A DNA stretch of 64,000 bases from Escherichia coli. GTDB lineage: Bacteria > Pseudomonadota > Gammaproteobacteria > Enterobacterales > Enterobacteriaceae. The stretch lies in assembly GCF_050920415.1 (NCBI RefSeq), contig NZ_CP169309.1; one strand, written 5' to 3'. Position numbers and translations under genes: made by a program. This document shows, in pieces, positions 58,305 through 59,086 of the stretch (position 1 is its first letter; the number at the start of each line of letters is the position of its first letter). The notes beneath the pieces were generated by a model. That model saw only the letters and a list, made by a program, of their open reading frames with translations. It had not been told where the DNA came from and did not search any database.

Positions 58305-59021
58305 ATGCGTCCAGCAGGCCGTAGCAATAATCAGGTGCGTCCCGTTACCCTGACTCGTAACTATACAAAACATGCAGAAGGCTCGGTGCTGGTCGAATTT
58401 GGCGATACCAAAGTGTTGTGTACCGCCTCTATTGAAGAAGGCGTGCCGCGCTTCCTGAAAGGTCAGGGCCAGGGCTGGATCACCGCAGAATACGGTATGC
58501 TGCCGCGTTCTACTCATACCCGTAATGCCCGTGAAGCGGCGAAAGGTAAGCAGGGGGGACGCACAATGGAAATCCAGCGTCTGATCGCCCGTGCTCTTCG
58601 CGCGGCAGTAGATTTGAAAGCGCTGGGTGAGTTCACCATTACGCTGGACTGCGACGTGCTTCAGGCTGATGGTGGCACGCGTACCGCTTCTATCACCGGT
58701 GCTTGTGTTGCACTAGCCGATGCCCTGAATAAACTGGTTGAAAATGGCAAGCTGAAAACCAACCCGATGAAAGGGATGGTAGCCGCGGTTTCTGTCGGGA
58801 TTGTGAACGGCGAAGCGGTTTGCGATCTGGAATACGTTGAAGACTCTGCCGCTGAAACGGACATGAACGTGGTGATGACCGAAGACGGGCGCATCATTGA
58901 AGTGCAGGGAACGGCAGAAGGCGAGCCGTTTACCCATGAAGAGCTACTCACCTTGTTGGCGCTGGCCCGAGGGGGAATCGAATCCATTGTAGCGACGCAG
59001 AAGGCGGCGCTGGCAAACTGA
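58305..59021 (+). CDS. rph: Ribonuclease PH, full-length (238 aa; no rph-1 type frameshift); track ORF starts at 58281
   Basis: ORF from [13 protein letters not shown] through the C-terminal ...ATQKAALAN without interruption. Confidence 0.95.
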
Positions 59022-59028
59022 TTTTTAA

Positions 59029-59054
59029 GGCGACTGATGAGTCGCCTTTTTTTT
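59029..59054 (+). terminator. rph-pyrE intercistronic attenuator hairpin (ggcgactgatgagtcgcc + T8)
   Basis: Inverted repeat plus T-tract between rph stop and pyrE start. Confidence 0.7.
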
Positions 59055-59086
59055 GTCTGTAGAAAAGTAAGATGAGGAGCGAAGGC

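Follow-up and report, generated by a model that had tools for sequence, protein, structure and literature searches.

The closest described system is the wild-type rph-pyrE operon of E. coli, which is subject to UTP-sensitive attenuation (Poulsen/Bonekamp/Jensen 1984). The passages on this operon in three later papers state that, in K-12, read-through of the terminator is set by the closeness of ribosome and RNA polymerase, and hence by UTP (Bonekamp 1984 and Jensen 1993, via PMC2784333, PMC4166923, and PMC5933015). According to the same passages, the 1-bp deletion in the rph-1 allele makes the ribosome stop too early and lowers pyrE expression, while mutations that shift the rph stop back towards the attenuator restore pyrE expression (PMC2784333, PMC4166923, PMC5933015). 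The rph-1 allele is that of K-12 strains W1485, MG1655, and W3110 (Jensen 1993). It was first seen in W1485, and RR1 and HB101 are reported to be rph+ (PMC5379014).

We compared these systems with the rph-pyrE locus in a 64,000-nucleotide stretch of E. coli DNA (the window). The gene order is the same as in the wild-type operon, with yicC oriented away from rph-pyrE and slmA convergent with it, and RNase PH has the same length (238 aa) and the same C terminus. The regulatory elements show no difference from those of the wild-type operon. What differs is the central part of rph, which carries a rare haplotype, and a single residue of the protein, Q142N relative to the commonest wild-type sequence. 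Our reading, with a probability of roughly 0.95, is that the locus is an ordinary wild-type rph-pyrE operon from a natural E. coli strain outside K-12; nothing in the sequence speaks against it.

Full-length rph lies at positions 58305 to 59021 on the plus strand (717 nt, an ATG start, 238 aa plus TGA). A mechanical list of open reading frames began the gene further upstream, at a TTG (58281), but we favor the ATG at 58305 because a GGAG Shine-Dalgarno sequence is found 8 nt upstream of it and because the RefSeq annotation of NZ_CP169399.1, a near-identical genome, starts the gene there. Further upstream, sequence reading located a perfect TATAAT hexamer (58263 to 58268, plus strand) that is a putative −10 element of an rph-pyrE promoter. 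The −35 region is weak, and no rph promoter was called by the consensus promoter scan.

The predicted protein scored 380.9 bits against the NCBIfam equivalog model for ribonuclease PH (TIGR01966; cutoff, 141.5 bits; E = 1.8e-114) and covered profile positions 1 to 235 of 236, showing that this is no chance open reading frame. Both phosphorolytic exoribonuclease domains were recovered with Pfam, domain 1 at residues 10 to 140 (RNase_PH, PF01138; 107.1 bits) and domain 2 at residues 157 to 222 (RNase_PH_C, PF03725; 58.3 bits). The structure of Pseudomonas aeruginosa RNase PH (1r6l) aligned with residues 2 to 237 (E = 4.7e-104). Profile coverage and structural alignment both indicate that the C-terminal helix lost from the rph-1 product is kept here, and the C terminus is that of the repaired K-12 sequence. 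The rph gene thus encodes a complete and presumably active RNase PH.

For the comparison with rph-1, the operon was aligned to MG1655 (NC_000913.3), in which rph is annotated as a truncated RNase PH gene of 687 nt. The rph-1 allele occupies the same locus, and its flanking regulatory sequence is identical to that of the window. The sole indel in the operon alignment fell in a run of G residues near the 3′ end of rph (58971 to 58975, plus strand), the site of the rph-1 deletion, which reads CGA-GGGGG-AATC (G5) in the window and GGGG (G4) in MG1655. Insertion of one G into MG1655 rph yielded a 238-aa protein with the same C terminus as that of the window, whereas the rph-1 product of MG1655 has 228 aa and ends in ARGESNPL. 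The premature rph-1 stop lies 36 nt from the attenuator stem in MG1655, compared with 7 nt for the TGA in the window. Elsewhere, positions 58180 to 58489, spanning the promoter region and rph nt 1 to 185, were 100% identical to MG1655. The last 60 nt of rph were unchanged, and from the G run to about 40 nt into pyrE the two sequences agreed base for base except for the extra G. An earlier note on this DNA had described rph as full length, unlike the frameshifted allele of K-12 laboratory strains, and had named an alignment with MG1655 rph-pyrE as the check. The intact 238-aa frame and the G5 run bear out that description, and the alignment shows the 1-bp deletion to be absent.

The rph stop codon (TGA, 59019 to 59021, plus strand) ends 7 nt upstream of the stem of the pyrE attenuator (59029 to 59054, plus strand), which consists of the hairpin GGCGACT-GATG-AGTCGCC (59029 to 59046) followed by eight T residues (59047 to 59054). 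The interval considered in the earlier note covers rph and this attenuator and ends at 59060, 6 nt beyond the T run. The gene for orotate phosphoribosyltransferase, pyrE (59087 to 59728, plus strand; 213 aa), follows its translated leader rph directly and on the same strand, with a spacer of 65 nt. Its open reading frame is intact, scored 238.9 bits against TIGR00336 (cutoff, 106.8 bits), matched the Pfam family Pribosyltran, and carries the same annotation in RefSeq in a near-identical genome. Between the rph stop and pyrE there is thus an intrinsic terminator with a GC-rich hairpin and a U run. The terminator scan matched it at 59027 to 59048 with 9 pairs, the hairpin was present in both the minimum free energy and the centroid fold, and hairpin and T run were identical in sequence to MG1655. 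Because the terminator scan by itself was not enriched over shuffled sequences (2 found versus 1.6 expected), the attenuator call rests on position and on identity to the characterized K-12 element. A search of the window against Rfam returned no attenuator family; its matches were istR and tRNA-Sec only. A further GC-rich hairpin, in the gap between pyrE and the convergent slmA (59736 to 59759; 10 pairs, 7 of them GC, by the terminator scan) is terminator-like on the minus strand, a role that we infer.

The 74-nt segment from the rph stop to the pyrE start was identical in 4,551 of 5,423 genomes and was off by about one base or indel in 857 (16%). The attenuators of strains DETEC-E223, 4/2-1, and 167 lack one C of the hairpin 3′ arm (AGTCGC-T8 versus AGTCGCC-T8; equivalent window positions, 59045 to 59046). 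Genomes that matched over 1,620 rather than 1,621 nt were considered as natural rph-1 carriers, and this was rejected: rph is full length in these genomes, and the base they lack is a C of the hairpin's 3′ arm.

The stop codon, the 7-nt spacer, the hairpin, the T run, the pyrE Shine-Dalgarno sequence, and the pyrE start are all identical between the window and the K-12 sequence. At this distance from the stem, a ribosome terminating on rph is close enough to mask the hairpin's 5′ arm, judged by the established reach of a ribosome footprint. In such an arrangement, rph would serve as a long translated leader of pyrE besides encoding RNase PH, and a ribosome ending rph would halt at the TGA 7 nt before the intercistronic terminator stem. 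At low UTP, RNA polymerase would lag, and the close ribosome would cover the 5′ arm of the hairpin, blocking the terminator and permitting transcription into pyrE. At high UTP, polymerase would outrun the ribosome, and transcription would terminate before pyrE. From the published K-12 work we infer UTP-sensitive coupling and normal pyrE expression for the window. Normal coupling is to be expected because the reading frame is intact, the stop lies 7 nt from the stem, and the cis elements are the same as in K-12. As the frame is intact, we do not expect the premature-stop polarity on pyrE through which MG1655 and W3110 are starved of pyrimidines. The earlier note had likewise proposed that rph stops just before the hairpin, that its translation is coupled to pyrE attenuation normally, and that polarity on pyrE is unlikely. 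The 7-nt distance and the K-12-identical cis elements favor normal coupling, and the intact frame speaks for the proposed lack of polarity, both by analogy with K-12.

An 82-bp rph-pyrE deletion reportedly arose in laboratory evolution and is said to be compensatory in MG1655. Translation of the leader ends beside the attenuator both in such compensated K-12 alleles (Conrad 2009) and in the window. The 82-bp deletion, however, does so at the cost of the rph 3′ end, which it destroys, and shifts the stop to a point immediately beyond the hairpin, whereas the window has the native frame and keeps both 10-bp GCAGAAGGCG repeats. This same deletion, located between the two GCAGAAGGCG repeats, is present in the K-12 stock NBRC 3301 (NZ_CP048439.1), where it likewise puts the leader stop just beyond the hairpin.

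The frequency of the two alleles was determined by exact matching of a 69-nt G5 probe and a 68-nt G4 probe to 5,424 complete E. coli genomes. The exact G5 allele was present in 5,159 (about 95%) and the exact G4 allele in 168 (3.1%). Among the G4 matches listed, 59 of 60 were K-12 derivatives (e.g., MG1655, W3110, BW25113, J53, and HMS174). HB101 and one O16:H48 strain of K-12 size carried G5, in keeping with the reported origin of rph-1 in W1485 and the rph+ state of RR1 and HB101 (PMC5379014). The clinical isolate 2015C-3101 (NZ_CP027221.1, 5.31 Mb) has G4, and its rph is flagged as frameshifted in RefSeq; the rph flanks were mismatched to MG1655 at 30 of 2,468 nt, indicating a non-K-12 background. 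Its G4 run is either an independent slippage in the G run or a homopolymer assembly error. G4 marks the W1485 lineage well but not perfectly. An intact rph says almost nothing about lineage and discriminates only weakly against K-12, because G5 is the norm and is also present in the K-12-derived HB101.

The relationship of the window to K-12 is clearer from the remaining DNA. All syntenic blocks were 94.9 to 97.6% identical to MG1655, and about 21 kb of the window is absent from that genome. A 25-kb block from selC to radC was at least 99% identical in only 2 of 5,424 genomes, MFDS1022581 (100%) and N96 (99.8%), neither of which is K-12; for most E. coli, identity of this block was near 96.6%. 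These values point to a rare, divergent E. coli lineage. The earlier note had argued for a non-K-12 lineage from the intact rph. That conclusion is right, but it is decided by the identity of the syntenic blocks and the 21 kb of extra DNA, rph itself being weak evidence.

Within rph, the divergence is concentrated in the center. Of the 717 nt of the gene, 37 differ from the repaired K-12 sequence, and 17 of these differences fall in a 58-nt stretch (rph nt 384 to 441). Allele comparison delimited a rare divergent haplotype at window positions 58490 to 58931 (plus strand), corresponding to rph nt 186 to 627, with 30 to 38 nt differences from common alleles, mostly synonymous. Its 100-nt core (58676 to 58775) was identical in 14 of 5,424 genomes, 97% identical in 18, including enteropathogenic E. 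coli (EPEC) E2348/69, and 80 to 90% identical in 5,388. The complete rph DNA was identical to that of strain 6409 (717/717 nt) and 6 nt off that of E2348/69. Both strains encode a protein identical to that of the window (RefSeq WP_001247087.1), but their flanking genomes are unlike that of the window, whose 25-kb neighborhood is matched at 99% or more in two genomes only. Relative to the commonest wild-type RNase PH (WP_001247093.1), the window protein has Q142N as its only change. Among the alleles compared, V138 and I216 were specific to K-12, and the window and other natural alleles have A138 and T216. The 3′ end of rph and the attenuator are untouched by the haplotype. The 14 genomes with an identical core include backgrounds unlike that of the window, and the haplotype looks like a recombinational import common to otherwise different backgrounds. 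In a search for the donor, an exact 63-mer of the haplotype was absent from the GTDB species representatives, and a 24-mer gave one chance match among them, to a Flammeovirgaceae metagenome-assembled genome.

Since rph doubles as the 238-codon leader of pyrE, an import of this kind could retune pyrE coupling, and it might conceivably affect polymerase pausing. That the haplotype came from an unsampled Escherichia-like donor and retunes transcription-translation coupling and pyrimidine homeostasis in its carriers nevertheless seems to us very unlikely. If the haplotype (rph nt 186 to 627, with Q142N) affected how RNase PH works or how fast the leader is transcribed or translated, pyrE regulation or tRNA 3′ processing would be unlike that of typical E. 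coli. Such an effect would fit the depth of the divergence, with a core only 80 to 90% identical to nearly all genomes and 30 to 38 differences from common alleles. Those differences are mostly synonymous, however, the sole amino acid change does not touch the conserved phosphate-binding motifs, EPEC E2348/69, a well-studied strain, has the same protein, and neither the attenuator nor the final 60 nt of rph is changed. We therefore consider a functional effect of the haplotype very unlikely.

The remaining alternatives concern the fifth G and the origin of the strain. A G homopolymer is a typical site of indel errors, the G4 run of 2015C-3101 on a non-K-12 background indicates that slippage or error does occur at this G run, and in iatC a 1-nt indel separates the window from its closest relative. 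The fifth G could on these grounds be a sequencing or assembly artefact in a strain that is truly G4 and frameshifted. Yet the run has five G residues in 95% of genomes. MFDS1022581 and N96, the nearest relatives, have five as well, as does strain 6409 with its fully identical rph, and an error would need to recreate the wild-type frame exactly; an artefact is extremely unlikely. There is next to no chance that this DNA stems from a K-12 laboratory strain with a repaired or never-mutated rph, be it an rph+ construct, a strain like HB101, or a K-12 predating W1485. Genomes of this type do exist, as the G5 run in HB101 and in the O16:H48 strain of K-12 size and the rph+ report for RR1 and HB101 (PMC5379014) attest. 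Against such an origin, syntenic blocks are only 95.3 to 97.6% identical to MG1655, the roughly 21 kb without an MG1655 counterpart includes a 17-kb type III secretion/adhesin island, the two relatives at 99% or more over selC-radC are not K-12, and the rph gene departs from K-12 at 37 of its 717 nt. A K-12 rph+ origin was rejected on the divergence from MG1655 and the extra islands, and the ordinary wild-type operon of a natural non-K-12 strain remains the preferred reading.

Several other features of the window were recorded. The 17.2-kb island at 17120 to 34338, absent from MG1655, lies between nepI and yicS and is what we take to be the known ETT2-associated eip/eilA/air island. It encodes the giant inverse-autotransporter adhesin IatC, the HilA-like regulator EilA, an IpaD/SipD-type needle-tip protein, a SipB/YopB-type translocon protein, and an LcrH-type chaperone. 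The window has an intact chaperone gene (33538 to 34035), but in MFDS1022581, which otherwise is almost identical, IS2 disrupts it. The adhesin gene, iatC (also called air or eaeX; 17325 to 27001, plus strand), has an IAT beta-domain and about 17 to 19 Big_1/Invasin_D3 repeats. It is split in the window into a 2,905-aa open reading frame and an overlapping 341-aa frame that carries Invasin_D4. The frameshift is a 1-nt deletion after 25993, where the T of GGCAA-T-GGGCAA is missing relative to the intact 3,225-aa gene of MFDS1022581, and reflects either a pseudogene or a sequencing error. A pair of genes for a RelE/ParE toxin and an HTH antitoxin (about 15044 to 15704, between yicN and nepI) is also absent from MG1655, as is a 3.4-kb segment between ilvN and uhpA (2715 to 6090). 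The two open reading frames of that segment (2967 to 4274 and 4530 to 5990) had no Pfam match and are hypothetical in RefSeq. The sRNA gene istR is at 269 to 398 (plus strand) and the tRNA-Sec gene, selC, at 38518 to 38612 (minus strand); selC has no large island, and only an rhuM remnant is annotated next to it in a near-identical genome.

DinD is a RecA-modulating SOS protein. Its gene (56270 to 57094, minus strand) contains a cassette at 56849 to 57061 that corresponds to DinD residues 12 to 82 in the Bro-N domain, where 39 of 71 positions differ from MG1655 DinD and the DNA is about 56% identical; the remaining protein is nearly identical. A 213-bp insertion at these coordinates was considered and rejected, the cassette being of equal length and highly divergent within dinD. 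The window type of the cassette was present in 2,813 of 5,426 complete E. coli genomes, at 99% identity or more in 2,651, which makes it far better conserved than its flanks (about 96%). The Bro-N cassette of dinD is a deep, roughly 50/50 dimorphism across E. coli.

The full-length rph of the window is correctly read but ordinary: it is the already known, textbook wild-type state. The G5/G4 census may serve as a reference, and otherwise the finding amounts to little beyond bookkeeping. For the organism itself, the sequence indicates a natural rph+ E. coli in which RNase PH should be active and pyrE should be regulated normally. Because the strain is naturally rph+, one should not presume that it shares the pyrimidine starvation and the tRNA-processing peculiarities of MG1655 and W3110.
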